A DNA stretch of 64,000 bases. Source: Escherichia coli (GTDB lineage: Bacteria > Pseudomonadota > Gammaproteobacteria > Enterobacterales > Enterobacteriaceae). The stretch lies in the NCBI RefSeq assembly GCF_013122565.1, contig NZ_CP053258.1. The stretch is one strand, 5' to 3'. A program made the position numbers and the translations under genes. This document shows positions 4,298 to 33,670 of the stretch, one piece after another. The first letter of the stretch is position 1. Each line of letters opens with the position of its first letter. The notes beneath the pieces are model-generated. The model was not told where the DNA came from. It did no database searches and saw only the letters and a program-made list of their open reading frames with translations.

Positions 4298-4376
4298 CTG
4301 CCCCGTGCGACTGGTCAGCCAGCCGCTGCGATCATACGCAAAATGCCCCCATCCGCATGCAAGCAGTATTTATCCT

Positions 4377-4682
4377 TTAGGAAAAGAGATTTATAGCTTT
4401 CTCTTGAAGTTCTATACCTATATCCTCAAGTTTGATCAGCTCGTCCTTACTGTACATTCCCTCCCGAAAAGAAAACATTCCATATACATCCATTAGTGCC
4501 AATCCTAAAACTTTTGGAACCATAATTTCATCAGCATATATTTCCGCCAAAAAATCCAGCGCCTTATATAATTCTTCAATTTCATTATCAAAAAAATCTT
4601 TCTTGAGTCTTAATCTAACAGGTATTGAATCATCTCCTAATAATTTATCGACCACTATTTTCAATGCAATCTCTTTATCCAT
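4377..4682 (-). CDS. putative immunity protein for orphan rhs module 3
   Basis: 101 aa AT-rich ORF immediately downstream of the orphan toxin tip. Confidence 0.45.
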   Translation of the reverse strand: MDKEIALKIVVDKLLGDDSIPVRLRLKKDFFDNEIEELYKALDFLAEIYADEIMVPKVLGLALMDVYGMFSFREGMYSKDELIKLEDIGIELQEKAINLFS

Positions 4683-4698
4683 ATATCATTTCCTGTCT

Positions 4699-6315: not shown

Positions 6316-6488
6316 CTAGCTGTTCAGATGGTGAATTTAACTACACCTTCTGGTTATCACCGTATTCAAGTGCCGCGATGCAACTACTGGGAAACTACAC
6401 TCATTCTCTTATTATTTTTAGAAATTTTCATCTATTAAATAATACACATGACCGATATTATTTAACCCTGCTGGGTATAACTGAAAAA

Positions 6489-7340: not shown

Positions 7341-7359
7341 ATATTTCCCCTTAAATAAA

Positions 7360-8820
7360 TCAACACTCCCCCTTCACTCTAAAATCTTGATCTGAAACAT
7401 TTCCTGTATTTGGTGGTCGTTTTTCATTACTGGTTACTCCTCTTCCTCCATTTTTAGCTATTTTCATTGCCTCTAAATTATTTAGCCATTGTTTACTAAT
7501 TCCAGCATATTTATCAAAATTCAACGAATCCAACATTGCCTGAGTTAACTTTCCACTTCGGGCATGTTGCAACATTCTCTGATATAGATTTTTTGTTTGA
7601 CCTGCATACATTTTACCCGCACCTTCATCAAAAAACTCATAAATTGCTTGCCCTTTATATTTTGCAGTAACATCTCTTATTTGTTCTAAAAAATCACTAG
7701 CGAGTCTTACTAATCCCCAAGGATCAATCCACCTCAGCGGATTCGGCGCATACCTGTAAAGATTCAGCCCACCCCGGATCGAAATCGGGTCCTGGCTTAT
7801 GAACCTTCCGCACTCCGGCGCATAATACCTGAACAGATTGTAATGCAGCCCCGTCTCTTCATCATAATACTGCCCCGGCAGCCGCAGCGGTTGCTCAAAG
7901 TACGCCCCGCTGTTGCTGATGTCGCCCCGATTTTCTCCAAATCCCGCCTGGTAGCCCGCCCACACCAGCCTCCCGTCCGGCGCGGTCACCTCCTGTACCG
8001 TGCCCGTCAGGTCCGTGTGGTAATACCAGATTTTTTGACTCTCTCCGCGCCCGGTGATGGCCGCCACTGGCGTGTACGGCTGTTCCGCGTCGTACAGGTA
8101 TGTCCGCTTTCCCTGCCACGTTGTCTCCTGCAACAGCCGGAACCCTTCCCACACAAACGTCGTCCGCCGCTGTTCCCTCTGGACCGTATGGCGGCCATAT
8201 GTCGCCTTGCTGATGCGCCTGCCCAGCGCATCATACTGATACCGCGTCTCGCTGTTGCTGCTGATGACCCGCGTTAACTGGCCCTGCGCGTTCCACTCCA
8301 GTTGCTGGTCCCTGCGCTCTGTCAGTTCGCCCCATTCGTTATAGCGGTAACGGTCACGCCCGTAGCCCGGCAGGCGGTTATCCATCACCGCGCTCTGATA
8401 CTCGTCCGTCAGCAGATTGCCCGCTTTGTCGTAATAATAATGGTCATGGTCGTACATCTGCCCCGTGCGGCTGGTCAGCCAGCCGCTGCGGTCATACGCA
8501 AAGCGCACCGTGTCCGCCTGCATGTGGTGCAGCCGTTCCCCTTCTTTCGTCGGGGTGAGCGTCACTTCCGTTATCTGGTCAAGACGGTTGTAGCTGAAGG
8601 TCCGTGTACTGTGCTGCGTGTCACTGCGCAACAGGCGGCCCAGCGCATCACGCTCCTGCCGCTCATTACGCCCCCCGCCTTCTGTACCCTGCGTCTGGAT
8701 GATGACCGGATACCCGCCCGCATTCAGCGCCAAATGGCTGAGAGAAGCGGGATTTGAGATCGGCACGGGCGTTACCGTGAAGATCTCGGAGGGATGTCTG
8801 ATCCTGCTTGCGGATAACAA
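7360..8820 (-). CDS. orphan Rhs C-terminal fragment 2: core repeat, DPWGL, GIY-YIG-like tip
   Basis: About 1.1 kb rhs core homology; tip has AIYEFFDEGAGKMYAGQTKNLYQRMLQH; the first ~30 codons are antisense to the SymE-like remnant. Confidence 0.7.
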   Translation of the reverse strand: MLSASRIRHPSEIFTVTPVPISNPASLSHLALNAGGYPVIIQTQGTEGGGRNERQERDALGRLLRSDTQHSTRTFSYNRLDQITEVTLTPTKEGERLHHMQADTVRFAYDRSGWLTSRTGQMYDHDHYYYDKAGNLLTDEYQSAVMDNRLPGYGRDRYRYNEWGELTERRDQQLEWNAQGQLTRVISSNSETRYQYDALGRRISKATYGRHTVQREQRRTTFVWEGFRLLQETTWQGKRTYLYDAEQPYTPVAAITGRGESQKIWYYHTDLTGTVQEVTAPDGRLVWAGYQAGFGENRGDISNSGAYFEQPLRLPGQYYDEETGLHYNLFRYYAPECGRFISQDPISIRGGLNLYRYAPNPLRWIDPWGLVRLASDFLEQIRDVTAKYKGQAIYEFFDEGAGKMYAGQTKNLYQRMLQHARSGKLTQAMLDSLNFDKYAGISKQWLNNLEAMKIAKNGGRGVTSNEKRPPNTGNVSDQDFRVKGEC

Positions 8821-8914
8821 CGAAGTACAGGAACTGCGCAGGGAGCTTTATCAGGTTAAACAGGCAGTTAAGGGGATGCGGGACGGGATGTTTAGTGTGC
8901 TGAACGAAAGTTAA
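8729..8914 (+). pseudogene. SymE-like 3' remnant (last ~62 codons) fused to an rhs-fragment boundary
   Basis: Near-identical to 2497..2683; homology to the first copy starts abruptly at the junction with rhs-core sequence (~8728). Confidence 0.45.
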
Positions 8915-8922
8915 ATAATAAA

Positions 8923-8955
8923 AAAGCCGGGAAGGTAAATAAGCTTCCCGGCTTT
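8923..8955. terminator. bidirectional intrinsic terminator hairpin
   Basis: 12 bp perfect stem aaagccgggaag / cttcccggcttt with 9 nt loop, flanked by A-run and T-run. Confidence 0.6.
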
Positions 8956-8975
8956 CCACAACAATTTTAACTTAA

Positions 8976-9464
8976 TTAATCATAAGCATCGCCGTAATTT
9001 TCATATTTCCAATAAATATATTTACCACCTGAGCTATATAATTTATGCAATAATTCTGTAAAAGTCATTGCAATAATTGGACAACTACCTACAACGCCAT
9101 GTATCTCATAATTGCTATCATAACAGCGTCCATTTCTTTCTGTAGAAAAATCAATGGATAAATAATCATTATTATCGGTCCTGCAAATTAAGTACCATGA
9201 AGATGATATATCATCCTCACATGGCTCACCAACTATAAATTTATTTGCCTGTAATATTTCATTATTTTTCAAAATAGTGAAGGAGATTTCCTGCTCTTCA
9301 GAGCAAAACAATTTTATTCCATTACATATTTTGTAAAAACGAACAACATCATCAGGATATTTTAAATAATCAGATGGTAATAAAGGCAAATTACCATCTG
9401 GTGGAATAACTTCACATCTGTTATCATTTTTTATCAAGTCAAGTAATTCATCAATGCCATTCAT
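8976..9464 (-). CDS. putative immunity protein (SUKH-like) for orphan rhs module 1
   Basis: 162 aa AT-rich ORF downstream of the orphan tip; LLPSDYLKY...FYKICNG pattern. Confidence 0.5.
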   Translation of the reverse strand: MNGIDELLDLIKNDNRCEVIPPDGNLPLLPSDYLKYPDDVVRFYKICNGIKLFCSEEQEISFTILKNNEILQANKFIVGEPCEDDISSSWYLICRTDNNDYLSIDFSTERNGRCYDSNYEIHGVVGSCPIIAMTFTELLHKLYSSGGKYIYWKYENYGDAYD

Positions 9465-9473
9465 ATTACCACC

Positions 9474-11312
9474 TTAAAAAATAACAGTATCAAACTTCCC
9501 AGAGTATATAAACTGGTTCAATGCCCGGTAATATGCTTCCCTACTGGCAACAGGAACATTTGCGGCATCAAACATTCGTTCAGTAAGATCTTTCATTTCT
9601 CTGCTACTTACTGTTGTCCAATCCACTTTCCCACCAACTCTTCTTCCGGTTTTCTGCTCTAACCAATCTCTATATACTTTTTTTGTTGCAGCATGATTAG
9701 CCTCGGATAATGCAATTGTTGGTGACTTTGAAGGATATTTCCCTCCATAAGATGGCACATTCTTAGACATCCAAATATCAAGCACACCATGATGGTTTTC
9801 TAAAGAGGAATTAATTGGTCGATAAGGAACAACATCAAACTCTTTAACTTCACCGCACTTAAGTCCAAGGGGATCTATCCACCCCAGCGGATTCGGCGCA
9901 TAAGCATACTGGTTCAGCCCACCCGCCAGCCCTATCGGGTCCTGGCTTACGAACCGCCCGCACTCCGGCGCATAATACCTGAACAGATTATAGTGCAGCC
10001 CCGTCTCTTCATCATAATACTGCCCCGGCAGCCGCAGCGGCTGTTCAAAGTACGCCCCGCTGTTGCTGATATCGCCCCGGTTTTCGCCAAATCCCGCCTG
10101 GTAGCCCGCCCACACCAGCGTCCCGTCCGCCGCGGTCACCTCCTGTACCGTGCCCGTCAGGTCCGTGTGGTAATACCAGATTTTTTGACTCTCTCCGCGC
10201 CCCGTGATGGCGGCCACCGGCGTGTACGGCTGTTCCGCGTCGTACAGGTATGTCCGCTTTCCCTGCCACGTTGTCTCCTGCAACAGCCGGAACCCTTCCC
10301 ACACAAACGTTGTCCGGCTTCGTTCTCCCCGGTCCGTATGGCGGCCATATGTCGCCTTGCTGATGCGCCTGCCCAGCGCATCATACTGATACCGCGTCTC
10401 GCTGTTGCTGCTGATGACCCGCGTTAACTGGCCCTGCGCGTTCCACTCCAGCTGCTGGTCCCTGCGCTCTGTCAGTTCGCCCCATTCGTTATAGCGGTAG
10501 CGGTCACGCCCGTAGCCCGGCAGGCGGTTATCCATCACCGCTCCCTGATATTCATCCGTCAGCAGGTTGCCCGCTTTATCGTAATAATAATGGTCATGGT
10601 CATACATCTGCCCCGTGCGGCTGGTCAGCCAGCCGCTGCGGTCATAGCTGAACACCAGGCAACCGCGCAGTTTGTCATTGATGCCGCCGACTTCACCGTC
10701 TGCGTTCCAGATATAGTCCCGCGCTGTCACGCTGTCGCTGTGTGACGGGGGTGTGGCTGTCTGCTGTGGGTTCTGGCTGCCGCCTGGCAGGCTGCGCTGC
10801 CAGCTTAACCGGTTGTCGGCGTTGTAGCCGCTGAACGTCGCCAGTTTCCCCTGGGTGCGCATCACCTGACGGTGCAGACTGTCACGCTCATATTCACTGA
10901 CCGTGATACCGTCCAGTGCCGTCTGGAGCAGATGTCCGCTGCCGTAGTAAAGATGGCTGAGGTGCTGCCCGTTCGGTAACGTGATGTCGGTGGGATTGCC
11001 CAGCGCGTCACGCTGATATTTTATGCTGCCGTGCACGCTGTGCTCTGCCGTCAGCCACCCGCTGCGGTCATACGCAAAGCGCACCGTGTCCGCCTGCATG
11101 TGGTGCAGCCGTTCCCCTTCTTTCGTCGGGGTGAGCGTCACTTCCGTTATCTGGTCAAGACGGTTGTAGCTGAAGGTCCGTGTACTGTGCTGCGTGTCAC
11201 TGCGCAACAGGCGGCCCAGCGCATCACGCTCCTGTCGCTCATTACGCACCCCGCCTTCTGTACCCTGCGTCTGGATGATGACCGGATACCCGCCCGCATT
11301 CAGCACAAACAT
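9474..11312 (-). CDS. orphan Rhs C-terminal fragment 1: core repeat, DPLGL, unassigned toxin tip
   Basis: About 1.6 kb homologous to main rhs (to ~11476, where an in-frame stop precedes it); first ATG at 11312; tip ~130 aa with no recognizable motif. Confidence 0.7.
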   Translation of the reverse strand: MFVLNAGGYPVIIQTQGTEGGVRNERQERDALGRLLRSDTQHSTRTFSYNRLDQITEVTLTPTKEGERLHHMQADTVRFAYDRSGWLTAEHSVHGSIKYQRDALGNPTDITLPNGQHLSHLYYGSGHLLQTALDGITVSEYERDSLHRQVMRTQGKLATFSGYNADNRLSWQRSLPGGSQNPQQTATPPSHSDSVTARDYIWNADGEVGGINDKLRGCLVFSYDRSGWLTSRTGQMYDHDHYYYDKAGNLLTDEYQGAVMDNRLPGYGRDRYRYNEWGELTERRDQQLEWNAQGQLTRVISSNSETRYQYDALGRRISKATYGRHTDRGERSRTTFVWEGFRLLQETTWQGKRTYLYDAEQPYTPVAAITGRGESQKIWYYHTDLTGTVQEVTAADGTLVWAGYQAGFGENRGDISNSGAYFEQPLRLPGQYYDEETGLHYNLFRYYAPECGRFVSQDPIGLAGGLNQYAYAPNPLGWIDPLGLKCGEVKEFDVVPYRPINSSLENHHGVLDIWMSKNVPSYGGKYPSKSPTIALSEANHAATKKVYRDWLEQKTGRRVGGKVDWTTVSSREMKDLTERMFDAANVPVASREAYYRALNQFIYSGKFDTVIF

Positions 11313-11517
11313 CCGTATCAGACCGTCCGGGCGCTGTTCTCCCGTCAGCCGTCCGTCCGCATCGTGACTGAACCGGTAAAGCGCTCCGTTGCCGTTGCTC
11401 AGACTGGCAATCCATCCCTCCGCGGTATAATGCCAGCGCGTCTCCCGTTTCTCTTCATCCGTGTGGCACGCCAGTTAACATACGTCTACTGACAAAACCA
11501 TTAGTCCAAACAAAATC

Positions 11518-16474
<4,957 letters not shown>

Positions 16475-16497
16475 AGAAAAATTCCTTTTATATTTTT

Positions 16498-18711
16498 TTA
16501 TTCAGAAACGTCCGGGGTAGGTAACGGGGCAATATCATCCGCAGTCATGGCTGTGCCGCCATCCGGATTCATATCAATGCCACTGCCAATGAGTTGCATA
16601 ACATCGCTGGTGTGCAGTAAAAGTTGTTTTCCGCAAAACTCAATCGAGCCATCCTTGTGTAATACAAGCGCTGCATTGCCGCAACGAAGGGTAAATTGAT
16701 CGCCAACATCCAGACGATATGTCGTTCCGACATTGATGGTTTGAGCCAGTTTGACGGAAAGACCATCATTTTTTGTGATGGTGGCATTACGGTCTTCTCC
16801 CACGCTGATGGTTTCATTTTTGACAATGGTTTTTATGCGATCGACCATGACCGTGTGGGTTTCATTGTTTTTTACCGTGGTATTGAGGTCTTTTTCCGCA
16901 TGGAACTTCACCTCTTCTGCCCCCGTTTTATCGTCAAAGCGCAGCATGTTTCCGTTGGTCGGCCCGCCATACAGCGAGTGGCTGAATATCCCGCTCTGCG
17001 AGGCCATACCCGGCAGTCCCCACGGCGGCATGGTGTCCTGGTTATAGGTGCGCCCTACAATGATCGGTAAATCCGGGTCGCCGTTTTTGAAATCCACCAG
17101 CACTTCCTGACCGATGCGCGGGATCTGGATCATGCCGAATCCTTTCCCTGCCCACGGATAGCTGACGCGGATCCAGCAGGAGCTGTTTTCGTCATTATTA
17201 CCGTAACGATCCCAGCCAAACTGCACCTTCACCCGTCCATATTTGTCCGTCCAGATTTCCTGCCCCGCCGGGCCGGTGACGATGGCGCTCTGCGGGCCTT
17301 TGGTGTGGGGTTTGCTCAGGGTTCGCTGTGGGCGGTAAACTTCGCTGGTTGGGTGCAGTTCAAACGTGGTGACATAGGTAAAATGCTGATCCTGGCCGCT
17401 GTGCTGCGCATTGTCCCGTAAAAACAGCGTGGTCTGTACCAGCAGGTATTCCTGATTAATTTCTGCCGTCGGGTGATTCATCAATGTAAAGGTGTACCCG
17501 GTCATGAGGGTACGGATATGACCGGCCCCATGTGCCCGGCTGCCTGGGCTACGCTGCGCTTCCATACGAATACGCGTCAACATCTCGCCTTCGCCCGTAG
17601 TGAAGTAATCACCAGGCCATTCGTAATGCTCGTATTCAGCATGACCGGTATCACGCGGACTGGCCACGGTACTTTTAAGCAGCGAACGAGGCTTCATAAA
17701 ATCAAAATCGTCCATCACCCACTTTCCAGTACGCAGCCTCTCACTGGCCGTAATGGTGTGAATAAATTCCTTATCCAGTTTCAGCCCTTCCTGGTGCCAC
17801 TCCACCAGTGGCGAGTCAGGGCACGCTTTATGACCATTGATGGCATCCGCCAGCACCAGCGTGTGGCTGTTCTCGCTGTGCTCAAACCACCAGTAAATTC
17901 CCCACTCCTGCATCAGGCGCTGGATGAAATCAAAATCCGTTTCACCGTACTGTACCTGCCAGGCACGAGGTGGATAATTTTCCACCAGCCGTTTTTCCAC
18001 CGGAAAGGAATATTCATCCAGTACTTCATCGAGAATATCCACCACGGTTTTATTCTGGAACGCTTTGTAGTCGCTGGTGTGGGTCAGCAGTTTCAGCCAC
18101 GGTTCAATGCGTAATTCATACGTTACCGAGCGGCCCTCATGGCCCACCACCCGCGCCGCTGTCACCAGCCCGCTGATATGCCGTTTGCCGCCGCCGTCCA
18201 GTTCGATATTGACGCACAGATCTTTGCCCACCATGGGCTGAAGCGGCAGGTTAGCAGCGGGGGAAACGTACCCCAGGTTCAGGGCGTCCGGCGTTTTAAG
18301 CTGTACTGTGTAGGAAAACAGATTCCCAAGCCCTTCCGAACCATTCATGCCTGCAAACAAAAGCATCTGCGGCGGCACCGCACTACCACTTACTGTGACG
18401 TTATGCGCCCCCGGACCACCTGCAGCAAGCGACGCCGCCGCATCCTGAACTGCACCAGCCATATCCGATATCCCTGCTGCGGCGGCTGCGGCTTGCGCAG
18501 CAGCTACTGCGGCTTTAACCAGACCTGACGGTTCCGGCAACGCACCAAACAGGTCCGCCGCTGCCTGTTCTACCATCTGCTCGGCTGCATCAGCTACATC
18601 GGTTGCGGCTGAACCAGGGCTTATACCACCACTTTCGCCAGCTATTGGTGGTGTGGTGATGACGGGTCCACCGTTTCCAACTGGTTTATTACCCGTAGAT
18701 ACAAAACTCAT
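16498..18711 (-). CDS. vgrG: VgrG spike protein (TssI) with ~95 aa Ala/Gly/Pro-rich N-terminal extension
   Basis: gp27/gp5-like motifs ([39 protein letters not shown]); AAGGAG RBS 7 nt before ATG at 18711. Confidence 0.9.
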
Positions 18712-18735
18712 GATATTTGCTCCTTTAATACCGGA

Positions 18736-19122
18736 TTAAAATCTAGCCCCTGGTGGCCAAAAAATATAAGTAATAACTCTCCATTGCCCGTCTTTATAAT
18801 GAAACCAACATGTCAGATTCAAATCCCCCTGCAAATTCCAGAACATTTCCTTAATAGGAACATCTTGAAATTCAGGATCTGTTATGCGATAAGTTTGATT
18901 CAAGCCGATATAATACTCACCAACAAATTTATATCGTGGCCTCACGAACTCATGAGCAGGCGGCCCATATTTTTTCATAAAAAAGATGTCATTACTTCCA
19001 TCATGTATATCATTTTCTTCATAATATTTGGTGGATTGAGCAACTGCAGAAGGCTTGAAAACATTCACTGTAGTTATGTAAGTTATTGAAAGAAAAATCA
19101 CTATAATGCAGAAAAATTTCAT
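18736..19122 (-). CDS. putative secreted immunity protein for HExxH effector 1
   Basis: 128 aa with N-terminal signal peptide; paralog of 20819..21181; overlaps effector stop. Confidence 0.5.
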   Translation of the reverse strand: MKFFCIIVIFLSITYITTVNVFKPSAVAQSTKYYEENDIHDGSNDIFFMKKYGPPAHEFVRPRYKFVGEYYIGLNQTYRITDPEFQDVPIKEMFWNLQGDLNLTCWFHYKDGQWRVITYIFWPPGARF

Positions 19123-19820
19123 TTGGTTACATTCAATAAAGTAAATTTAGTTTCAGGCATTATGACATTCAACGTTATAGTTGCGTTTTTAAGGTATCGT
19201 TCCCGAAGCTCCATTCCCACATTCATCAACCCACTAATATCTCCAACATACGGAGACGAAGAATCATAATCATCATCTAAGTAACCAAGTACATGTCCGG
19301 CTTCATGAGGTATATTTACTTGCAACGTATTGTTACAGTTAATACATTTCGCTACTTTTTCCAGGTCCGCTGAATCAACATGAACCGTACTGTTTTTAAA
19401 ATCAACATATGTTCTTAAATCAGCACCAGGCAAAACCTTTGTTGCAATAACCAACCAGTCTTCATTCTGAGATGCAGAAATTATTCTTACATCAAAAGGC
19501 AAAGCTTTACCCTGAAATTTTTTAGCGAACTCAGATTCACCGGAAACAGAATAAGTTATTTTCCCATTCCATGCCTGCTGAACAGATAAATATATCGCTC
19601 GCATAAAAATAGCTTTTTCCCATATAGTCCAGTCATCTGTAACGGTATTATCCTTATACCACTCATACTTCCATCTTATCACAGCCGTAATCGAACCAGT
19701 ATTTTGATTTAATAAATACGTCCTCCTACCATCCTTATGTATAATGATATCGCCATCAATATTTGTTTTTTCATAGTATTCGGCCAGCAAACTATTCTCA
19801 TCATATTTAAGCTTGGTCAT
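19119..19820 (-). CDS. putative T6SS effector 1, HExxH zinc-metallopeptidase-like
   Basis: 233 aa, no signal peptide; HEAGHVLGYLDDDY motif; paralog of 21178..21984 (shared ALMNVGMELRERYL). Confidence 0.55.
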   Translation of the reverse strand: MTKLKYDENSLLAEYYEKTNIDGDIIIHKDGRRTYLLNQNTGSITAVIRWKYEWYKDNTVTDDWTIWEKAIFMRAIYLSVQQAWNGKITYSVSGESEFAKKFQGKALPFDVRIISASQNEDWLVIATKVLPGADLRTYVDFKNSTVHVDSADLEKVAKCINCNNTLQVNIPHEAGHVLGYLDDDYDSSSPYVGDISGLMNVGMELRERYLKNATITLNVIMPETKFTLLNVTK

Positions 19821-19879: not shown

Positions 19880-19905
19880 ATTGCCCCTTCAGCCGCAGCG
19901 CATCC
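19880..19905. repeat. short remnant of the tagF 3' coding end
   Basis: cagccgcagcgcatccacataccg matches tagF 3' end at ~23275..23300. Confidence 0.5.
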
Positions 19906-20032
19906 ACATACCGTCCTTCACTGCAGGGCAAGATTACGAAAGCCCGCCCCCCGCAAGGACTGACGCGAGGTAGTTTCTGTCCATGGCTGCTTTTCTCATC
20001 TTACGTCTTAACCCTGCCTTGGTTTCGCCGTA

Positions 20033-20794
20033 CTACACCTGCCAGGCGCGGGGGGGATAATTTTCCACCAGCCGTTTTTCCACCGGAAAGGAATATTCAT
20101 CCAGTACTTCATCGAGAATATCCACCACGGTTTTATTCTGGAATGCTTTGTAGTCGCTGGTATGGGTCAGCAGCTTCAGCCATGGCTCAATGCGTAATTC
20201 ATACGTTACCGAACGGCCCTCATGGCCGACCACCCTCGCCGCCGTCACCAGCCCGCTGATATACCGTTTTCCGCCACCGTCCAGTTCAATGTTGACGCAC
20301 AGGTCTTTGCCCACCATGGGCTGAAGCGGCAGGTTAGCAGCGGGGGAAACGTACCCCAGGTTCAGGGCGTCCGGCGTTTTAAGCTGTACTGTGTAGGAAA
20401 ACAGATTCCCAAGCCCTTCCGAACCATTCATGCCTGCAAACAAAAGCAGCTGCGGCGGCACCGCACTACCACTTACTGTGACGTTATGCGCCCCCGGTCC
20501 ACCGGCAGCAATCGACGCCGCCGCATCCTGAACTGCACCAGCCATATCCGATATCCCTGCTGCGGCGGCTGCGGCTTGCGCAGCAGCTACTGCGGCTTTA
20601 ACCAGACCTGACGGTTCCGGCAACGCACCAAACAGGTCCGCCGCTGCCTGTTCTACCATCTGCTCGGCTGCATCAGCGACATCGGTTGCGGCTGAACCAG
20701 GGCTTATACCACCACTTTCGCCAGCTATTGGTGGTGTGGTGATGACGGGTCCACCGTTTCCAACTGGTTTATTACCCGTAGATACAAAACTCAT
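20033..20794 (-). pseudogene. truncated vgrG 5' duplicate (first ~253 codons with identical RBS and start)
   Basis: Near-identical to 17950..18711 including the Ala-rich extension; homology ends ~20025. Confidence 0.7.
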
Positions 20795-20818
20795 GATATT
20801 TGCTCCTTTAATACCGGA

Positions 20819-21181
20819 TTAAAATTTGGATCCTGGCGGCCAATAAACTCGGGATATAACTATCCATTTACCATTTTTATAATGAAGCCAACATGTTAAA
20901 TTTAGATCTTTATTAACATTCCAAAACATCTCCTTAATAGGAACATCTTTAAATTCAGGATTATTTGAAGGGTAAGTCCGTTCTATGCCACCATAATAAA
21001 TACCTACAAAATCATGCCTTGGGTTTATAAAATAATGTTCAGGAGAACCATATTTTCTCACTAGTGAATCTTCATCATCCCCCCACTGAACATCTTTGTT
21101 ATGCATCTCACTGGCAAAAATATCTAGAGTTACAAGCAATATCAATAACGTAAAAAATAGAGCGATTTTCTTCTGGATCAT
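20819..21181 (-). CDS. putative secreted immunity protein for HExxH effector 2
   Basis: 120 aa with signal peptide; C-terminal region paralogous to 18736..19122. Confidence 0.5.
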   Translation of the reverse strand: MIQKKIALFFTLLILLVTLDIFASEMHNKDVQWGDDEDSLVRKYGSPEHYFINPRHDFVGIYYGGIERTYPSNNPEFKDVPIKEMFWNVNKDLNLTCWLHYKNGKWIVISRVYWPPGSKF

Positions 21182-21984
21182 TTTATTACACTCGCAACAG
21201 AAAACGTAGTTAAGGGATATACTAAATTCAAGTCAATACAGACACCTTCCAGGTAGCGTTCCCGAAGTTCCATCCCAACATTCATTAACGCGGCAGTATC
21301 TATTTTATATTTAGACACAGGCTTACCAAACTTATCAAGTTCATATTCATCCTCCAGATAACGAATCATATGTCCAATTTCATGAACTATATTTACCTGA
21401 TAAAAACCACATATTGACTGATTCTCTGGAGCACATTTTTCTGATAACGAAGTATCTTTAAAATAAAAATGAGCAAACCGATTTTTCCAGTTAACATAAG
21501 GCCTGCCATCATCATTACCAGGAACGGTTCTTAATACGTCTACATTCCAGTGTTCTTTTTGATGGACCGGAATCATATTTATGCTGAAAGGCAATCTTTT
21601 ACTCTTGAATTTCTCAGCAAAATCAGAGTCCCCTGAGACAGATAAAAATATCTTATCATTCCATCCATAACAGATTGCAGAAAATGATTCATATATAAAA
21701 CTAACTTCATCCAGGTATGTCCAGTTATCTCCTACATTGTTCTGATTCACCCAGTTAAATTTCCATCTCATTAATAATGCAATGTCGCCTGTATCACTAT
21801 TCAGGATATATTCGCCATGTTCTGTATTCATCCTGAGACACTTCCCATCTTCTACGGTGTCAGGGCAAAACTTATGCATGAGTTTAATAAAGAATTCATG
21901 CGATAGATTTATTTTACTCTCTCCAACAACACCATCTACATGTGTTGTGAGCGAACCAGATTTATTCCCTGAAGAAGAACTCAT
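21178..21984 (-). CDS. putative T6SS effector 2, HExxH zinc-metallopeptidase-like
   Basis: 268 aa; HEIGHMIRYLEDEY motif; paralog of 19119..19820. Confidence 0.55.
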   Translation of the reverse strand: MSSSSGNKSGSLTTHVDGVVGESKINLSHEFFIKLMHKFCPDTVEDGKCLRMNTEHGEYILNSDTGDIALLMRWKFNWVNQNNVGDNWTYLDEVSFIYESFSAICYGWNDKIFLSVSGDSDFAEKFKSKRLPFSINMIPVHQKEHWNVDVLRTVPGNDDGRPYVNWKNRFAHFYFKDTSLSEKCAPENQSICGFYQVNIVHEIGHMIRYLEDEYELDKFGKPVSKYKIDTAALMNVGMELRERYLEGVCIDLNLVYPLTTFSVASVIK

Positions 21985-22180: not shown

Positions 22181-22294
22181 TATCCAGTCGCAACGCATCC
22201 ACATACCGCCCCCTTGCTGTTCTGCTGCCAGAACCATCCATGCCCCTGCTGCGCCTGCGTTAACATTTTTGCTAGCCAGCACGGTCACGGCAGG
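22181..22294. repeat. ~115 bp duplicate of the tagF 3' coding end
   Basis: Near-identical to 23271..23385; lies between the Tge/Tgi pair and HExxH effector 2. Confidence 0.6.
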
Positions 22295-22311: not shown

Positions 22312-22773
22312 CTACTCATCCGTACAACCCAGCCCCCGGCGCTGAACCACTTCACTGGCAAACGTTGCTCCGGTTTTTTTCATTATTCCCTGCTGGATTT
22401 TTTGTAACTCCGGGTATACAACCCGCTCACATTCATTTATTTCCCATATGTCACCCGTCTTAGGACTAACCGAAAACAACCCTAAATAGTCTGTTGCTCC
22501 AGCAGTCGGCGTATCATAGCCAAGACTAAAATCATAATATCCGGGATGAGGCGCATTGCCCTGACCATCCTGTAAATCTCCATCAATAAAAATCCCTTCC
22601 AGCGATAAATTATACTTTTGGTGCCTGAGTACAATAATAAGCAGTTTTTCCGCCTGTGCTTTCGTCATCCCTTCGCGGTTTATATCTGATAAATTAAATT
22701 CAGACGTATTCCCCTGAACGTAGCAAACCGCAGAGGCAAGAAGAAAAAAAACAAATATTATTTTACGGGGCAC
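22312..22773 (-). CDS. putative secreted immunity protein (Tgi-like)
   Basis: 153 aa with signal peptide; immediately downstream of and overlapping the glucosaminidase-like gene. Confidence 0.5.
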   Translation of the reverse strand: MPRKIIFVFFLLASAVCYVQGNTSEFNLSDINREGMTKAQAEKLLIIVLRHQKYNLSLEGIFIDGDLQDGQGNAPHPGYYDFSLGYDTPTAGATDYLGLFSVSPKTGDIWEINECERVVYPELQKIQQGIMKKTGATFASEVVQRRGLGCTDE

Positions 22774-23228
22774 GCCATTCTCCTTCCGACCATAATAATA
22801 ATGTCAGCAGTTTTTTTGGCATAATTATCTGTTCCGCCTGTGCTACTATCTCCAGAATTAAATCCGGCCTTTACCAGAGCATCACAGAAAGCCAAAGCAT
22901 CCTTTATGTCTCTGGCTGCATTACCATATTTTATTGCAAAAGATCGTGCACAGATTGAAAAAGACGGAAAAGTAGCCACCCGGGTTTTCTTGTTACCGTG
23001 CGGACGGATTTCGCCTGACTGAAATGATGCAGGGGCATGCAGGGAGAAATAGTTGTTATATTCCCTGGCAATACGGCCTGTACCATACTGGCTCTCCGCC
23101 GCGGCAAGCCCCAGAATATTTTCCACAGGAACATTAAGTTGTTTAGCGATTAATTCACATTCTTTCAGATGCTGCTGAACAAACCTTACTGCATTAACAT
23201 CATTACAGGCTTTGTCATAAGACCCCAT
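22758..23228 (-). CDS. putative peptidoglycan glycoside-hydrolase effector (FlgJ/GH73 glucosaminidase-like, Tge-like)
   Basis: 156 aa, no signal peptide; ILGLAAAESQYG and NNYFSL resemble the FlgJ glucosaminidase motifs. Confidence 0.55.
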   Translation of the reverse strand: MGSYDKACNDVNAVRFVQQHLKECELIAKQLNVPVENILGLAAAESQYGTGRIAREYNNYFSLHAPASFQSGEIRPHGNKKTRVATFPSFSICARSFAIKYGNAARDIKDALAFCDALVKAGFNSGDSSTGGTDNYAKKTADIIIMVGRRMACPVK

Positions 23229-23255
23229 GATCCACTACTCCTTATCTGATTATTT

Positions 23256-24029
23256 TTAATGCTGCCGGATATCCAGCCGCAACGCATCCACATACCGCCC
23301 CTCGCTGTTCTGCTGCCAGAACCAGCCCTGCCCCTGCTGCGCCTGCGTCAGCATTTTGTCCGGCCAGCCCGGCCACGGCAGGTGGCGCACACCGGGCAGT
23401 TCCACTACCGGCACGTCCGGCAGGCCGGTGAGTTCCCGGCTACGCTGCGGTACACGTCGTAAGCCGCGTAGCCACTGCGCCCAGCGCGGCCCCGGTCGCC
23501 ACATCGCCCAGAGCTGGTCTGTCTGCTCCGCCAGTCGACCGCAGCGTTCTGTCTGTGGTGAGACATGAGCTGCCGTCAACTGCGCCAGCCAGTACAGCCA
23601 GCCCTTTGTGTCATCCAGGCTCTCTTCCAGCCATTCCCGCCCGGCACGCTGGTAAATCACCAGTGGCCACGACCTGCCCGTACTGTCACGTGAGGCGGTC
23701 AGCACCCCGGTCAGCCACTCATCGCGCCCGCCAATGGGGAGAAATCCCGGCGATAATACAAAGCTCCACGGTAGCGGATGGTGTTCCGGCACCTCCGTTT
23801 TCTCGCGCGGTGACAGGTGCATCCAACCGTCATTTACTCCGGTTTTCGCAGCATCCGTTCCTTCCGGCAGAACAATATGCCGCCCCTGTCCCAGCCACGT
23901 CTGCTGGTTCAGCCACGCCTGCCACACCTGCCCATCGTTCGCGCTCACCCGCCAGCGCACGTAGTCCCGCTGATCCGGCAGTCTGCCGAACATCGCCGGA
24001 ACCGATACCACCGCAGCCCGGCGCATCAC
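23256..24029 (-). CDS. tagF: type VI secretion-associated protein TagF (DUF2094)
   Basis: 257 aa; FGRLPDQRDYV N-terminal motif; overlaps tssM stop. Confidence 0.75.
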   Translation of the reverse strand: MMRRAAVVSVPAMFGRLPDQRDYVRWRVSANDGQVWQAWLNQQTWLGQGRHIVLPEGTDAAKTGVNDGWMHLSPREKTEVPEHHPLPWSFVLSPGFLPIGGRDEWLTGVLTASRDSTGRSWPLVIYQRAGREWLEESLDDTKGWLYWLAQLTAAHVSPQTERCGRLAEQTDQLWAMWRPGPRWAQWLRGLRRVPQRSRELTGLPDVPVVELPGVRHLPWPGWPDKMLTQAQQGQGWFWQQNSEGRYVDALRLDIRQH

Positions 24030-27000
24030 AGCGCTCGCTCCGGGCAGGCGAAGCGTTGCAGTAGCCCACGGTTCACCGGGTCAAAATCCCGTCCTGCGGT
24101 GATTTCCAGCACCACCCGCCGCCCGTCAAAGCTATATTCAACCTGCTGTGTTCCCCGTACCGCCGTCTCCTGCGCGTTACCCGCATCCAGCAGGTGAAAC
24201 AGCGCCCACGGTCCGTTAGTCAGCAGCGTCGAGGTGTCCTGGCGGATGCGCGGGCTGGCGGTGATTTCCGCCATTGAGCCGTTGCGCGGCCCCGGCCAGT
24301 TCACTTTCAGCGGTCTGACCGGGCCGTGAGCGTAACGCAGCACCTGACCGTCGATATCAATCACCAGTTCAGTGATTGCAGGGTCCATATCCACGACGCG
24401 GACCTGCATCGCCCAGGAAAACTTTTTCCCGCCTTCACCGTTAAAAAAAACGCTGCGGATCTGTTTCGCCTCCTGAAACGGCGTCAGGTCCGGCCCCTGT
24501 AAGGTCATGTTGCCTTCGGTCGGTTTGTAGCGCCACGGGTTGCTGGCGGTGTCCGCCAGCGGGGCCAGTTGCTTCGTCCAGAACGCATCCAGCACACCGC
24601 CGCTGGCAAAGATATGGTTAAAATCGTCCGCGCTGACCTCCTGCGGGCTGTCGGTAAAGGGGTAGCGCCCGTCAATAGCATCACGGCACTCATCGCCAAT
24701 CACCGCTTCCATCTGCGCGTTCAGCACTTCACCGGTGCCGGCGTTGATTTTGCGCGTTCCCTGCTGCGTGAGATCCAGCAAAATATTTTTCAGCGGTGCG
24801 GGCAGTTTTGCCGCCTCCAGTTGCAGTTTATCCGCCGCCGAAATACGGCCAGGTAATGTGCTCGCTGCCAGCGCGCTGTCGGCGATGGTGAGCTGGGTGT
24901 AATATTCATTGAGCATTGTCAGCAGCGAATTTAACTGCGGCGCGCCACCAGTCTGCCCGCTGTCTGTCCGCCCGGAAACCACTTCCCGCAAGGCGGCGAA
25001 ACGGTCATCCACCAGTGATTTCTCCAGCCGCTCTTCCGGGTGGATGTCCTGTAACAGCTTTGCCGTCTGCCCCGCTTTTCCCACATTGCCGGAGAGCCGG
25101 TCCTGCGCACGCTGGGCCATCTGCTTTTGTCTGGCCTGCGCATCCAGCGGCGGCACCAGCGTGGTCTGCTCCACCACCGCTTTACTCAGGCGCATCAGCG
25201 GGGAATCCGGCGAGGCCAGGGTACGCAGCACCTGAAGGTCATACGCCAGCCCGGGACTGCCGTCTTCCCCGGCACTGTTGATGCTGTGAATACTTGCCAG
25301 AAAATCCTGCCAGCGGCGGGCATATTCAGCCAGGTACAGGCGGCGTACCTCACGGGTAACCGGGAGTTCCTGCCCCGGCAACTGGCTCATCACAATATCC
25401 GTTGTTTTTTTTTGCGCGTTTTCCCGGCCCATCACCCAGGCATCGTCCGCTGATGCGGCTGCGACAAACTCCGACAGCCGTTTGTCGAACAGTTCCCGGT
25501 AGCCTTCGCGAGTGAAGATGCCGGGCACGCCCCTATCCAGCGGCGCGCCATCCGTGCGGACAAAAACCGTTCCCGCATCCGCGCCCACAGCGCGAACCAG
25601 CGAAAACTCCTGCGGTGCTTCGCTCTCCATGGAAGCCAGGGCTCGAGTGTAGATACGCTCGGTGCTGGTATGGCCGTCAAGGAAGGCTCGCGCCTGGCGG
25701 ATCAGCCCCTCATCTTTTTCCCAGGGCGAATGCACCACGCGGCTGCCGTCAAACAGGGCATCGATATGCTCCAGCACGGCGGCGCGACCGCCGAACTCCG
25801 CCACGCTGTCGCGGTTGTCCAGGTCGTTCAGCACCCAGGCGTGGATCTCCGCCGCGTTGTATTTATCCTCGTGGTCCTTATCGAGGTTCAGCAACAGATA
25901 AACATGCAGGGCGTCATAGGCGGCTTTGCTGTCCTGACGCGCAATCGCATCCGAAAGCACGTATTCCATGCGTTTCACCAGCGGTGGCAGCAGTAACTGG
26001 TCCAGCAGGCGGTCATACAGGGATGCGACGCTCTCCATCACCGGCGGAACGCTGTAAAGACCATAACGCCAGGCCAGCGGCGGCGAGTCCGGGTCCAGTC
26101 CCGGCCAGGCAGAGAGCGCCCGTGCCTGGTTCAGCAGGGCCGGAACAGGCTGCATAGCAGGTTTTCCGGTATAGGCTTTGACATCACCATCCAGTTGGGT
26201 CGTCCGGCTGGCGATTTCATTCAGATAACCGCTGTTACCCTGCTGGCTGCCCTGCATTCCCTGCCACAACCAGAAAGCCAGCGCCAGTACCAGCAGATGC
26301 CCGCCAGTGCGCAGCAGGCGGTAACGCCAGGCCCACTGAAGGTTCGGCTCCACCAGGTGCGCTTCGCGGAAGATAAACTGCGTCAGTAGATCGTGCAGGA
26401 AATAGCTGCGGTTGCCGTCCGGCAGGGTATGGGATGGGGAATCAGCCTTCCCTTTGATAGCACGGACAAAACGCTGCCAGATGCCCGTCTTGTCAGCCAC
26501 GGCGTCTGCCTGCGCCTGCGCGGCGCTGGTAAAAAATACGCCGCGCAGGGTGTTGTTAAGCTGGGTGGCGTCAAATTTTGAATCGAGGAAAATCTGCTCA
26601 ATGGCTTCCAGCAGCGGCGCACCCAGCGCGGCAAATTCACGCGGGAAGCGATAGAGCCGCTGGCGGCTTTTAAGGTCGTACTCTTCCTGCAACCGGGTAT
26701 CCAGCCCCTGATCCAGCCGCAGGGTCAGGTTTGCCAGTTCCTGGCTACAGAGCGCATGCAGCGACTGCGGATCGCTGGCGTGACGCCTGCGGCTGTATGG
26801 CAGAGTAAAGCCCCAGACCTGGGCGCGCAGGTGGCTGGTCAGCCCGTGGAAATACTCCGTAAAGCCCGGCAGCAGATCCATCTTGGTGACAACCAGATAG
26901 ACCGGAAAACGAATACCCAGCGTCTCCCGCAGTTCCGCCAGCCGCGCACGCAGGGCCGCACAGGCAGCCAGCCGTTCCGCCGGGGACTGCGCAGTCAGAT

Positions 27001-27892
27001 CCGCCACGTTCAGCGTCAGGATCACGCCGTTGAGCGGTGCGCCGGGGCGGTGTTTACGCAGCAGTCCCAGAAACCCGTGCCACTCCCCGGCGTTGCGCTG
27101 GGTCGCGCTGATTTCGCCACCGTCATCGTGACGGGCATAGCGCCCGGCGGTGTCAATAAGCACTGCTTCGTTGGTAAACCACCAGTCGCAATGCAGCGTT
27201 CCGCCGCCCGGCACGGTGAGGATATGCGCGGTTTGCTCCATCTGCTCCGCCAGCGGAAACTGCAATCCGGTGTTGAGCAGTGCTGTGGTTTTACCGTCGC
27301 CGGGGCTACCGATAACCATGAACCAAGGCAGTTCGTACAGAAAACGTTTTCCTTCCAGTACGTTACGCCAGCCCGGCAGGTCTACGCGCAGCTGTTTCAG
27401 TTGCCGAATAGCGCGAGTGACAATATGGCTGACGGTGCGTAAGTCGGCTTTAATTTCCCCGGCCACCGGTACGTCTTCCCCGCGCGGATGCAGGAAACGG
27501 CGCAGCAGTTGTTCGTCCAGACGCAGCGCCCGCCACAGCCGGTACAGGCCATACAGCGCATAAGACAGAAGGATCAGGCCGATAAGCGTCAGACGCAGCC
27601 ACAGCGGCGCAAATGGATGAACATCACCGAAAGCCAGCAACGGTGAGACAAAGCCGATAACCAGGCACAGAACCGTAACGCCAATGATGCTCATAGACCA
27701 GTTAACCAGCCACAGTGCGAGGAACATCAGTAACAGAACGATGGTGACTAACCGACTTCCCACGGACGCGAGTGGATGCAGGGTGTCAAACGCGACCAGC
27801 GGCCCAATAAACCAGACCAGCAACGCCAGCATTACCAGGCCAACAATGGCCAGCGCGCGGCGGGAAAACAGCATACTGAGAAATTTTTGCAT
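24026..27892 (-). CDS. tssM: T6SS membrane-complex protein TssM (IcmF)
   Basis: 1288 aa; N-terminal transmembrane helices, Walker A GSPGDGKTT, large periplasmic domain. Confidence 0.9.
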   Translation of the reverse strand: MQKFLSMLFSRRALAIVGLVMLALLVWFIGPLVAFDTLHPLASVGSRLVTIVLLLMFLALWLVNWSMSIIGVTVLCLVIGFVSPLLAFGDVHPFAPLWLRLTLIGLILLSYALYGLYRLWRALRLDEQLLRRFLHPRGEDVPVAGEIKADLRTVSHIVTRAIRQLKQLRVDLPGWRNVLEGKRFLYELPWFMVIGSPGDGKTTALLNTGLQFPLAEQMEQTAHILTVPGGGTLHCDWWFTNEAVLIDTAGRYARHDDGGEISATQRNAGEWHGFLGLLRKHRPGAPLNGVILTLNVADLTAQSPAERLAACAALRARLAELRETLGIRFPVYLVVTKMDLLPGFTEYFHGLTSHLRAQVWGFTLPYSRRRHASDPQSLHALCSQELANLTLRLDQGLDTRLQEEYDLKSRQRLYRFPREFAALGAPLLEAIEQIFLDSKFDATQLNNTLRGVFFTSAAQAQADAVADKTGIWQRFVRAIKGKADSPSHTLPDGNRSYFLHDLLTQFIFREAHLVEPNLQWAWRYRLLRTGGHLLVLALAFWLWQGMQGSQQGNSGYLNEIASRTTQLDGDVKAYTGKPAMQPVPALLNQARALSAWPGLDPDSPPLAWRYGLYSVPPVMESVASLYDRLLDQLLLPPLVKRMEYVLSDAIARQDSKAAYDALHVYLLLNLDKDHEDKYNAAEIHAWVLNDLDNRDSVAEFGGRAAVLEHIDALFDGSRVVHSPWEKDEGLIRQARAFLDGHTSTERIYTRALASMESEAPQEFSLVRAVGADAGTVFVRTDGAPLDRGVPGIFTREGYRELFDKRLSEFVAAASADDAWVMGRENAQKKTTDIVMSQLPGQELPVTREVRRLYLAEYARRWQDFLASIHSINSAGEDGSPGLAYDLQVLRTLASPDSPLMRLSKAVVEQTTLVPPLDAQARQKQMAQRAQDRLSGNVGKAGQTAKLLQDIHPEERLEKSLVDDRFAALREVVSGRTDSGQTGGAPQLNSLLTMLNEYYTQLTIADSALAASTLPGRISAADKLQLEAAKLPAPLKNILLDLTQQGTRKINAGTGEVLNAQMEAVIGDECRDAIDGRYPFTDSPQEVSADDFNHIFASGGVLDAFWTKQLAPLADTASNPWRYKPTEGNMTLQGPDLTPFQEAKQIRSVFFNGEGGKKFSWAMQVRVVDMDPAITELVIDIDGQVLRYAHGPVRPLKVNWPGPRNGSMAEITASPRIRQDTSTLLTNGPWALFHLLDAGNAQETAVRGTQQVEYSFDGRRVVLEITAGRDFDPVNRGLLQRFACPERAL

Positions 27893-32128: not shown

Positions 32129-32614
32129 TTAAATTTCTTTATTGGCCTTGAAGTCGTAGCCTGCGGTGATGGTGCCGCCGCTGCCACCTTGCTGGTTCTG
32201 CACCACGTATTCCTGCTTCACGGTGCTGAAAGAGAGTTCGACCATTTCACGGGAGGCAATCTCCCCTTCCTTGCTGCCACTGGGAGATACAACAGCCACA
32301 ATAAGGTCAGTGAAGGTATATTTGAGATATTCCAGCGGATTGCCGCCTGCTTTACGCATGGTCAGCACAGCTTTCGGAATGTGTTTGCCGGAGGCGCAGT
32401 ATTTGAACAGGTTAGGACTGGCACGATCGATATAGTGGTCAAAGTCCAGGTTGGTCACGGAGACTTTACCGGATCCCAGGCCACTGCCCGCGTGCATGGT
32501 GGACTCCTGGTGAATATTCCAGCGCCAGCTCAGCACCTCAATTTCATTTTTATGTTTGTCATCCATTGACTCGCCGTCAATGCCGTCAATTTTCAGAAAA
32601 ATGTCATAAGCCAT
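32129..32614 (-). CDS. hcp: Hcp tube protein (TssD)
   Basis: 161 aa from the second ATG (RBS spacing favors it); MAYDIFLKIDGIDGES, typical Hcp. Confidence 0.9.
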   Translation of the reverse strand: MAYDIFLKIDGIDGESMDDKHKNEIEVLSWRWNIHQESTMHAGSGLGSGKVSVTNLDFDHYIDRASPNLFKYCASGKHIPKAVLTMRKAGGNPLEYLKYTFTDLIVAVVSPSGSKEGEIASREMVELSFSTVKQEYVVQNQQGGSGGTITAGYDFKANKEI

Positions 32615-32831
32615 TTTCATTTCCTTATTAAGAATTACTTAAAATAATCTCTGGTTTATCTTCGCATCTGAATTCAGGTAAACCATAGCCGTACAGAACC
32701 TCCTCTCCTTAATTTAAGAAGAACAGAAGGCTCTATATTTTTCAGAACTTAAGTACCAGACAGAAAATCATTCACGAAATAAATGTTTATCAATTATATA
32801 TAGTTAACTGATAACATATTCTACTGGACTT

Positions 32832-33287
32832 TCATTCACATATTAAAGATACGGGTTTCTCCCTTGGTGGTTCATCGAAATAAAGAGTCTTACAGGAATG
32901 AGTATTTACAGGTACTGGCTGAGATAACCAGACCAGTCCGTAGCTATAAATACAGGAAAACCAGTATCTGTCGCTCTCTTTCGCTGTCGCGCCTTCTGTA
33001 TTCCATATCAACCATGTTTCCTGTTTTATTTTTTTCATCTCTGGCTTCTGATCGCCAAAATTTTCCGGTTTATCCTGTGTGACACTAATATGCGTTAACC
33101 ACTGACGAGGCTCCTGCCGTGGGGAAACTCTCCATTGCGGCTGGACAAATGATTTCAGAACCGCGGTGTAAGGCTCCGTTTCAACAAAAACAGGACAAGT
33201 AACTTCCCATGCCGACACATTTTGTGCATAAAACAAGGCAACACCAGAAAGAAGCAATACAGGAAAGCGCATCATCGTACCTTCCAT
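32832..33287 (-). CDS. putative secreted immunity protein (Tai-like)
   Basis: 151 aa with signal peptide, directly downstream of the amidase-like gene. Confidence 0.5.
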   Translation of the reverse strand: MEGTMMRFPVLLLSGVALFYAQNVSAWEVTCPVFVETEPYTAVLKSFVQPQWRVSPRQEPRQWLTHISVTQDKPENFGDQKPEMKKIKQETWLIWNTEGATAKESDRYWFSCIYSYGLVWLSQPVPVNTHSCKTLYFDEPPREKPVSLICE

Positions 33288-33670
33288 TATTCAATTACAT
33301 AAAATGCTTCAGCATTACTGCTGGCGCTGGGATACGAACCGTCAGAGTTTGCTCCGCCTTTCGGTCTGAGTTGATGTTTTTCGATTCTGATCTGCGTTCT
33401 CCACTGATCCATAACCCAGATCCCTCGTTTATCCTGCCCCAGATAGAATGCAGCATGATTACCTGAACTCCTGCCAGGCCATCGCCCATTAAAAAAAGTG
33501 GCAATAGCGGTACCTTTTGGAATGGTGGTGTCCCCCCACACTTTCTTACCCGCACGCCATGTTGCTGTGGAGCCAAGATGTGCATACCTTTTAACCAGAG
33601 TTACACACTCACCATCCCCCACTAATGGCTGCCCCTGTAATAAATCCACTGATTCATAAACTCGCGACAT
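33287..33670 (-). CDS. putative Cys/His papain-fold peptidoglycan amidase effector (Tae-like)
   Basis: 127 aa; candidate catalytic Cys (GECVTLVKRY) and His (NHAAFY) about 60 residues apart; sits between tssC and hcp where SPI-6-type islands carry tae/tai. Confidence 0.5.
   Translation of the reverse strand: MSRVYESVDLLQGQPLVGDGECVTLVKRYAHLGSTATWRAGKKVWGDTTIPKGTAIATFFNGRWPGRSSGNHAAFYLGQDKRGIWVMDQWRTQIRIEKHQLRPKGGANSDGSYPSASSNAEAFYVIE

Follow-up and report, generated by a model that had tools for sequence, protein, structure and literature searches.

A short minus-strand gene in the 64,000-nucleotide stretch of Escherichia coli DNA analysed here (the window) encodes a protein with the motifs of a peptidoglycan hydrolase, and it overlaps a gene for a secreted protein within a group of T6SS genes. 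Is this pair an effector with its immunity protein, or a wall-remodelling enzyme of another kind lying beside an unrelated gene? The initial annotation had favoured the former, naming a FlgJ-like glucosaminidase effector candidate followed by a secreted immunity protein. We find that the two genes are very probably a Tge2/Tgi2 effector–immunity module of an E. coli T6SS of the Salmonella SPI-6 type, the activity of the effector being assigned by homology. The evidence that carries this reading is the membership of both proteins in the respective families, the fold of the effector, its conserved catalytic Glu, the presence of a signal peptide on only one of the two partners, and the gene order tssM-tagF-tge2-tgi2. 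The Tge2/Tgi2 family itself is already known: it is named, its structure is solved, it is annotated in databases and it has a canonical genomic position. Whitney and co-workers reportedly described the family, together with its structure and the way in which immunity works, in the Journal of Biological Chemistry in 2013 (288:26616). Table 1 lists the features of the locus.

Table 1. Features of the tge2-tgi2 locus and selected T6SS genes around it (positions are those of the window)
Feature	Position	Strand	Description	Basis
tge2	22758..23228	-	ATG start; 156 aa, 17 kDa; predicted GH73-like T6SS peptidoglycan glycoside hydrolase effector	ORF and homology
Ribosome-binding site of tge2	23238..23243	-	AAGGAG, 9 nt 5' of the tge2 ATG	Read from sequence
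Glu45 codon of tge2	23094..23096	-	GAG; predicted catalytic general acid	Invariant in 44 homologues; FlgJ alignment
tgi2	22312..22773	-	GTG start; 153 aa; Tgi2 family immunity protein (predicted periplasmic)	ORF and homology
Predicted Tgi2 signal peptide	22708..22773	-	Residues 1–22, MPRKIIFVFFLLASAVCYVQG, followed by N	Inspection, hydropathy and alignment
tagF 3'-end remnant	22181..22294	-	Directly downstream of tgi2	blastn, 114 nt, 88.6% identity; 85-nt repeat at 87%
tagF	23256..24029	-	T6SS accessory gene directly 5' of tge2	TIGR03373, E = 5e-10; RefSeq annotation of a 98%-identical locus
tssM (IcmF)	24026..27892	-	T6SS membrane-complex core gene 5' of tagF	RefSeq homologous locus; same order in Salmonella
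hcp (TssD)	32129..32620	-	Tube protein, same cluster	TIGR03344, E = 3e-16

Family membership and fold of the effector

The 156 aa protein without a signal peptide that had been proposed is present as an ORF at the expected place, and its N-terminus is polar (the highest Kyte-Doolittle mean of any 12-residue stretch in the first ~40 residues is 0.73); by inspection and hydropathy a signal peptide is absent from Tge2 and present on Tgi2. The two sequence motifs that had drawn attention to the protein are real as well and lie at residues 38–49 (ILGLAAAESQYG) and 58–63 (NNYFSL). The gene is probably co-transcribed with the upstream tagF, since it begins 27 nt past the tagF stop codon.

The closest relative of known structure was found by phmmer to be chain A of PDB entry 4KT3 (4kt3_A, E = 9.3e-49, residues 6–153 aligned), which a profile of the Tge2 family also recovered from the PDB with E = 2e-77. 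Entry 4KT3 is the 1:1 complex of Tge2PP and Tgi2PP of Pseudomonas protegens, a T6SS-delivered antibacterial effector and its immunity protein (PMC4832377; PMC11114119). The profile search against GH73 that had been put forward as a check gave a match to Pfam Glucosaminidase/GH73 (PF01832) with E = 1.2e-9 that extends over residues 27–144 and model positions 7–118 of 123, and in a large protein collection this family is precomputed on every full-length Tge2 homologue. An AlphaFold (AF2) model built on an alignment of 44 homologues from that collection has a pLDDT of 89.9 and a pTM of 0.85. When the model was compared with the PDB by Foldseek, the best match was again 4kt3_A (TM 0.85/0.94), and nearly all of the next-best matches were GH73 enzymes, namely Sphingomonas FlgJ (2zyc and 3k3t), Salmonella FlgJ (5dn4/5dn5), Listeria Auto (3fi7), a Thermotoga protein (4qdn), AtlA and LytB. 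Membership in T6SS glycoside hydrolase effector family 2 is thus supported by both the sequence comparisons and the predicted fold.

Could the protein nevertheless be a housekeeping or flagellar autolysin of the FlgJ type, or the remnant of a phage endolysin, near a T6SS and followed by a gene for an unrelated secreted protein? An NCBIfam scan, in which no model dedicated to Tge2 or Tgi2 was found, did return sub-threshold matches to FlgJ, Bax and GsmA (FlgJ and Bax with E = 4e-4 to 2e-3), and some metagenome annotators label Tge2 homologues ‘flagellum-specific peptidoglycan hydrolase FlgJ’. The scores are far from the cut-offs, however, at 20.2 bits versus 193 for TIGR02541 and 12.9 versus 595 for NF009358; only the catalytic-domain segment aligns, and at a mere 156 aa the protein has no N-terminal rod-binding domain. 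The proposed likeness to FlgJ therefore holds for the catalytic domain, in which Glu45 aligns with FlgJ E185 (below), and fails for the protein as a whole. Furthermore, tge2 encodes no signal peptide and has neither a holin gene nor phage genes nearby, the protein encoded downstream belongs to the Tgi2 family, for which a complex with the effector has been solved, and both Salmonella and E. coli have kept the synteny with tssM-tagF. We consider this explanation extremely improbable: FlgJ or another autolysin is ruled out by the domain architecture and by scores below the cut-offs, together with the synteny and the presence of a cognate immunity protein, and a phage endolysin by the lack of a phage context.

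Predicted catalytic residue and the bond that is cut

Glu45, in the stretch AAAESQYG, is invariant across the 44 Tge2 homologues, as are E36, N37, N59, F61, S62 and the terminal cysteines C8 and C153, and all 34 of the 34 family-invariant residues are kept in this Tge2. In the profile search of the PDB the family sequence ‘laaqEsqyG’ aligns with ‘aaLEtgWG’ of wild-type FlgJ (2zyc), and the Glu45 column corresponds to the engineered Ala of 3k3t (‘aaLAtgWG’), an entry titled ‘E185A mutant’. Because it lines up with E in 2zyc and with the substituted Ala in the E185A structure, we take Glu45 to correspond to the catalytic Glu of FlgJ; the profile alignment and Foldseek both place the general-acid Glu equivalent to FlgJ E185 and Auto E122 at this residue.

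Other parts of the GH73 active site are not kept. FlgJ ‘gYATDp’, which contains the GH73 YATD motif, aligns with ‘gFNSGd’ (F123-N124-S125-G126), other Tge2 members having F or Y at the position of the YATD Tyr, and no invariant Asp or Glu was found at residues 64–100, the beta-hairpin lobe, when the 44 homologues were aligned. As both YATD and an invariant second carboxylate are absent, we count Tge2 as a divergent GH73-like hydrolase whose mechanistic details may differ. With the GH73 hydrolases (the FlgJ C-terminal domain, Listeria Auto, pneumococcal LytB and enterococcal AtlA) it shares the fold, A-x-E-S/T-x-x-G and N-N-x-F at 15–24% identity, but it differs from them in having FNSG in place of YATD, no Sec signal and no carrier, rod-binding or cell-wall-binding domains. 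By analogy with its characterized relative, and unlike those enzymes, Tge2 would be a T6SS-delivered weapon with a dedicated inhibitor.

These differences bear on which glycosidic bond might be cut. Salmonella papers speak of Tge2 as a ‘predicted’ or ‘hypothesized’ N-acetylglucosaminidase, and a review groups Tge1–3 as ‘glycoside hydrolase (muramidase) effectors’ (PMC4832377). Should the latter term apply, the module would be the same and Tge2 would be a muramidase or lytic transglycosylase that cuts MurNAc-beta-1,4-GlcNAc like Tse3/Tge1, and the lack of YATD and of an invariant second carboxylate, together with a weak match of Pfam SLT_2 around the catalytic Glu (E = 0.018), would be in keeping with this. 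Yet all of the significant sequence and fold matches besides Tge2PP belong to the GH73 glucosaminidase family, whereas none of the matches to lysozymes or SLT reaches significance (in Foldseek, g-type lysozymes and SltB occur solely among hits with E of 0.46 and above). A muramidase or lytic transglycosylase is therefore unlikely in our judgement, and from the sequence and the model we consider a glucosaminidase the probable identity of Tge2.

The immunity gene and its product

The gene that follows tge2 had been said to encode a signal peptide, and inspection of its product agrees: the N-terminus reads MPRK, IIFVFFLLASAV and CYVQG before the N at which the mature protein would begin, hydropathy reaches its maximum of 3.02 at residue 5, and the whole looks like a typical Sec signal, in which V-x-G would be a plausible site of cleavage. 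The 16 nt by which tgi2 and tge2 overlap suggest that the two are translationally coupled. RefSeq calls the same tgi2 ORF in E. coli. The protein matches chain B of 4KT3 (Tgi2PP) with E = 1.4e-44 and the Pfam family T6SS_Tgi2PP (PF21576) with E = 1.9e-17; a match to PorU in NCBIfam was judged spurious. As the two neighbouring proteins match the two chains of one effector–immunity complex, the pairing put forward in the initial annotation is upheld, and all of the checks it had suggested that can be made by computation came out in its favour.

The crystallised Tgi2PP aligns with Tgi2 only from residue 29 onward, and chain B carries the name ‘putative lipoprotein’ in the PDB. In an alignment of four Tgi2 proteins Cys17 is conserved, and two cysteines of the mature domain (C115 and C150) are common to 4/4. 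Pseudomonas Tgi2 has a good lipobox, LALAC, but the enterobacterial proteins do not: the residue at -1 relative to Cys17, Val in this protein, is replaced by Phe in the Salmonella protein and by Asn in that of a second E. coli allele (below), and none of the three fits a lipobox. Cleavage by signal peptidase I between VQG and N appears equally plausible to lipoprotein anchoring for Tgi2.

Comparison of the E. coli pair with Tge2PP-Tgi2PP shows homology of both proteins over nearly their whole length, with 53–55% identity between the effectors (52% in the Foldseek structural alignment). The P. protegens effector likewise has a GH73-like fold and the same catalytic Glu, its gene precedes and overlaps that of the immunity protein, and of the two proteins only the latter has a signal peptide. 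The surroundings differ, in that the Pseudomonas genes form an orphan bicistron located far from T6SS genes and the E. coli pair lies inside the cluster, directly after tagF.

The T6SS cluster around tge2-tgi2

The window is E. coli chromosome, as judged by a yafC-mltD-gloB flank that is 99.3% identical to, and present in, 5,424 of 5,426 E. coli genomes. In addition to the T6SS genes of Table 1 it encodes TssL, TssK, TssJ, TssC, TssB, ClpV, TagK, TssF, VgrG, a DcrB/Eag-like protein and a PAAR-Rhs toxin, so that the T6SS cluster around tge2-tgi2 is apparently complete; Tae2/Tai2 occupy the position equivalent to VR1.

An intact module need not be in use, and the pair could be a genomic fossil that is unexpressed or undeliverable, with Tgi2 alone being useful against Tge2-armed neighbours. 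The pair is rare (below), gene remnants and a truncated vgrG make the surrounding region a patchwork, and tssK and tssL are pseudogenes in VE-T9, the E. coli genome closest to this one, so the tge2-tgi2 module is not always found in a working T6SS. In this window, on the other hand, tssK, tssL, tssM, hcp, tssB/C, clpV and vgrG each form a full-length ORF that scores strongly against its family, and tge2 keeps its ribosome-binding site as well as the catalytic Glu and the full set of family-invariant residues. We therefore regard a fossil as improbable for this strain and retain a Tge2/Tgi2 module of an apparently complete cluster as the preferred reading.

tagF remnants and neighbouring modules

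The tge2-tgi2 cassette is compositionally foreign, its GC content being 43.6% versus 64.9% for tagF, 60.7% for tssM and 58.8% for the tagF remnant downstream of tgi2. This remnant and the end of the real tagF form a direct repeat that flanks the cassette, and in other strains RefSeq annotates the remnant as a partial TagF pseudogene.

There is a second tagF remnant of 34 nt at 19890–19923, just before a gene for a 233-aa protein. Between the remnants lie two paralogous low-GC modules, each with a gene for an HExxH protein followed by one for a small secreted protein, and between the modules stands a truncated copy of the vgrG 5' end, at 20022–20896, that is 94.9% identical to the real vgrG. 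tagF remnants are also present in the Salmonella locus and with the second E. coli allele, and are absent in a strain without tge2.

The two HExxH proteins (268 and 233 aa) have no Pfam or NCBIfam match, even at E ≤ 10. They are candidate metallopeptidases on the strength of the HExxH motif and of 46–50% identity to a 243-aa Salmonella VR2 protein, whose size is that of two Salmonella VR2 candidates called Reprolysin_4 or M64 in the published work.

That low-GC cassettes are bounded by tagF 3' remnants suggests homology-driven stacking, which is the one mildly new point of this analysis. A broader proposal, based on four loci, is that the region after tssM-tagF grows and is swapped by homologous recombination on tagF 3' (and sometimes vgrG 5') anchors, with Salmonella and E. 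coli also exchanging cassettes in this way, and that the E. coli alleles are separate immunity-specificity groups. We put this forward tentatively, as an idea with somewhat less than even chances of being right.

Distribution and relation to the Salmonella module

The pair occurs in 12 of 5,426 complete E. coli genomes (0.2%). Three of these carriers have the allele described here (99.7% identity) and nine have the second allele, which is ~74% identical to it in nucleotide sequence and 62% (effector) and 58% (immunity) identical in protein sequence. Genomes labelled Salmonella have, in the same place, an allele 96% identical to that of the window. RefSeq names the E. coli effector ‘glucosaminidase domain-containing protein’ and the immunity protein of the second allele ‘Tgi2PP family T6SS immunity protein’.

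In Salmonella, by contrast, the module is widespread, and published analyses catalogue Tge2/Tgi2 in variable region 2 of SPI-6, downstream of tssM, in 150–240 serotypes; according to the published SPI-6 analysis the Salmonella pair is known from bioinformatics only. The arrangement there is identical, tssM-tagF-tge2 (156 aa)-tgi2 (153 aa) with a 16-nt overlap too, and the Salmonella and E. coli proteins are 77% (effector) and 79% (immunity) identical. After tgi2 the Salmonella locus continues, as here, with a tagF remnant, a metallopeptidase-like module (ORFs of 243 aa and 144 aa before vgrG), vgrG, a DcrB/Eag gene and PAAR-Rhs.

Proposed function and implications

The known route of small T6SS cargo effectors is the basis for giving Hcp a carrier role here. 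As homology indicates, Tge2, which lacks a signal peptide, would be synthesised in the cytoplasm, loaded as small cargo, most likely in the lumen of the Hcp tube, and fired into the periplasm of Gram-negative neighbours. There its GH73-type, lysozyme-like domain is expected to cut the glycan strands of peptidoglycan with Glu45 as general acid, probably at the GlcNAc-beta-1,4-MurNAc bond, and this cutting would weaken the wall and lead to lysis of the target. Tgi2, presumably co-translated with the effector, would be exported by Sec to the periplasm of the producer, where it would bind incoming Tge2 1:1 and plug its active site, so protecting sister cells. Secretion, toxicity and neutralisation have been demonstrated for P. 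protegens Tge2 only (PMC4832377; PMC11114119) and are transferred to the E. coli proteins by homology.

The logic resembles that of another pair, although the proteins do not. Tse3, a muramidase, is much larger than Tge2, and Tse3/Tge1 appears unrelated to Tge2, with no match in either the Tge2 sequence search or the profile search of the PDB. Tse3/Tge1-Tsi3 of P. aeruginosa is nonetheless also a T6SS-delivered periplasmic glycan-strand hydrolase with a periplasmic immunity protein (PMC4832377).

For the family as such the locus adds little new biology, as Salmonella SPI-6 has the same module in the same position and the E. coli genes already carry labels in RefSeq. Its value lies more with E. 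coli, in which Tge2 would be a rare accessory weapon of use for annotation and strain typing. The published analysis of Salmonella SPI-6 noted that the region looks like a hot spot, yet found no mobile elements in it and left the cause open; if the anchor proposal is true, recombination on tagF and vgrG may explain a hot spot without mobile-element genes. The SPI-6-like T6SS of this E. coli has an armament of at least five modules directed at the wall or the cell, namely Tae2, Tge2, the two metallopeptidase-like candidates and PAAR-Rhs.

Effector pairs and the Rhs array of the cluster

The 156-aa glycoside hydrolase effector Tge2, encoded at 22758-23228, has two cysteines close to its N- and C-terminus, C8 and C153, that are invariant in all 44 homologues; judged from sequence, they might be joined by a disulfide that would close only once Tge2 is in the target cell's oxidising periplasm. 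The closest complete genome with exactly this tge2-tgi2 allele is that of E. coli VE-T9, which differs from the window in that RefSeq annotates its tssL as frameshifted and its tssK as carrying an internal stop (15870-18525 of its locus, L001), whereas both are full-length ORFs in the window.

The tssC-hcp interval of the window, its counterpart of variable region 1 (VR1) of Salmonella SPI-6, houses a second peptidoglycan-targeting pair. Its 127-aa protein belongs to the BPSL0067 family of NCBIfam and hits 6WIN in the PDB (E = 1.5e-33), an entry named "Type 6 secretion amidase effector 2" (Tae2); the STY0301-family protein that follows is presumed to be Tai2. The region at 3170-16474 of the minus strand is a typical displaced-toxin/immunity array, in which a DcrB/Eag-like gene is followed by PAAR-Rhs with its small ORF and then by four orphan Rhs C-terminal fragments, every one with a small ORF downstream.

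Coordinates of features (in the window unless a comparison locus is named)
Feature	Coordinates	Strand	Remarks
Tae2-type 127-aa protein	33287-33670	minus	PDB 6WIN match
STY0301-family protein, presumed Tai2	32832-33287	minus	
tagF 3'-end remnants	22181-22294 and 19890-19923		
tagF 3'-end remnants, L003	6956-7014 and 8630-8734		
tagF 3'-end remnants, L007	2873-2983 and 644-677		
Module 1, 268-aa and 120-aa genes	21178-21984 and 20819-21181	minus	
Truncated duplicate of vgrG 5' end	20022-20896	minus	ORF 20033-20794, 253 aa
Module 2, 233-aa and 128-aa genes	19119-19820 and 18736-19122	minus	
DcrB/Eag-like gene	16031-16474	minus	
PAAR-Rhs toxin	11871-16010	minus	small ORF downstream
Orphan Rhs C-terminal fragments (four)	9474-11312, 7360-8820, 4699-6315, 3170-4297	minus	

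Cassettes between tagF and vgrG

Two paralogous metallopeptidase-like modules of 33-36% GC are stacked in the window, separated by a truncated vgrG copy that is 94.9% identical to the full vgrG (17939-18813) across 875 nt. Their 268-aa and 233-aa proteins are 39% identical and carry the HExxH-type motifs HEIGHMIRYLE and HEAGHVLGYLD, respectively; neither had a match in Pfam or NCBIfam. The second genes (120 and 128 aa) both encode a signal peptide, and their products are 44% identical. A 243-aa protein of Salmonella variable region 2 (VR2) is 46-50% identical to the 268-aa and 233-aa proteins and equals in size two VR2 candidates listed in one paper as Reprolysin_4 or M64 peptidase effectors.

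At the 3' end of tgi2 (22312-22400), the final ~22-30 residues of Tgi2 (…KKTGATFASEVVQRRGLGCTDE) are the same in the window, Salmonella and second E. coli alleles. Since this identity holds despite the second E. coli allele being otherwise only 58% identical, it hints at a recombination breakpoint within the tgi2 3' end.

In both E. coli and Salmonella, the edges of the low-GC effector/immunity cassettes in the tagF-vgrG interval are repeatedly marked by tagF 3'-end remnants, which are 34-114 nt long and 85-91% identical in the window and in the comparison loci L003 and L007 (one of them from Salmonella, the other carrying the second E. coli allele); the locus of a strain without tge2 (L002) has no such remnant, only the genuine tagF end. 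Because the remnants recur at cassette edges and L002 has the genuine end only, these sequence comparisons suggest that cassettes between tagF and vgrG are inserted or stacked in a manner anchored by homology.
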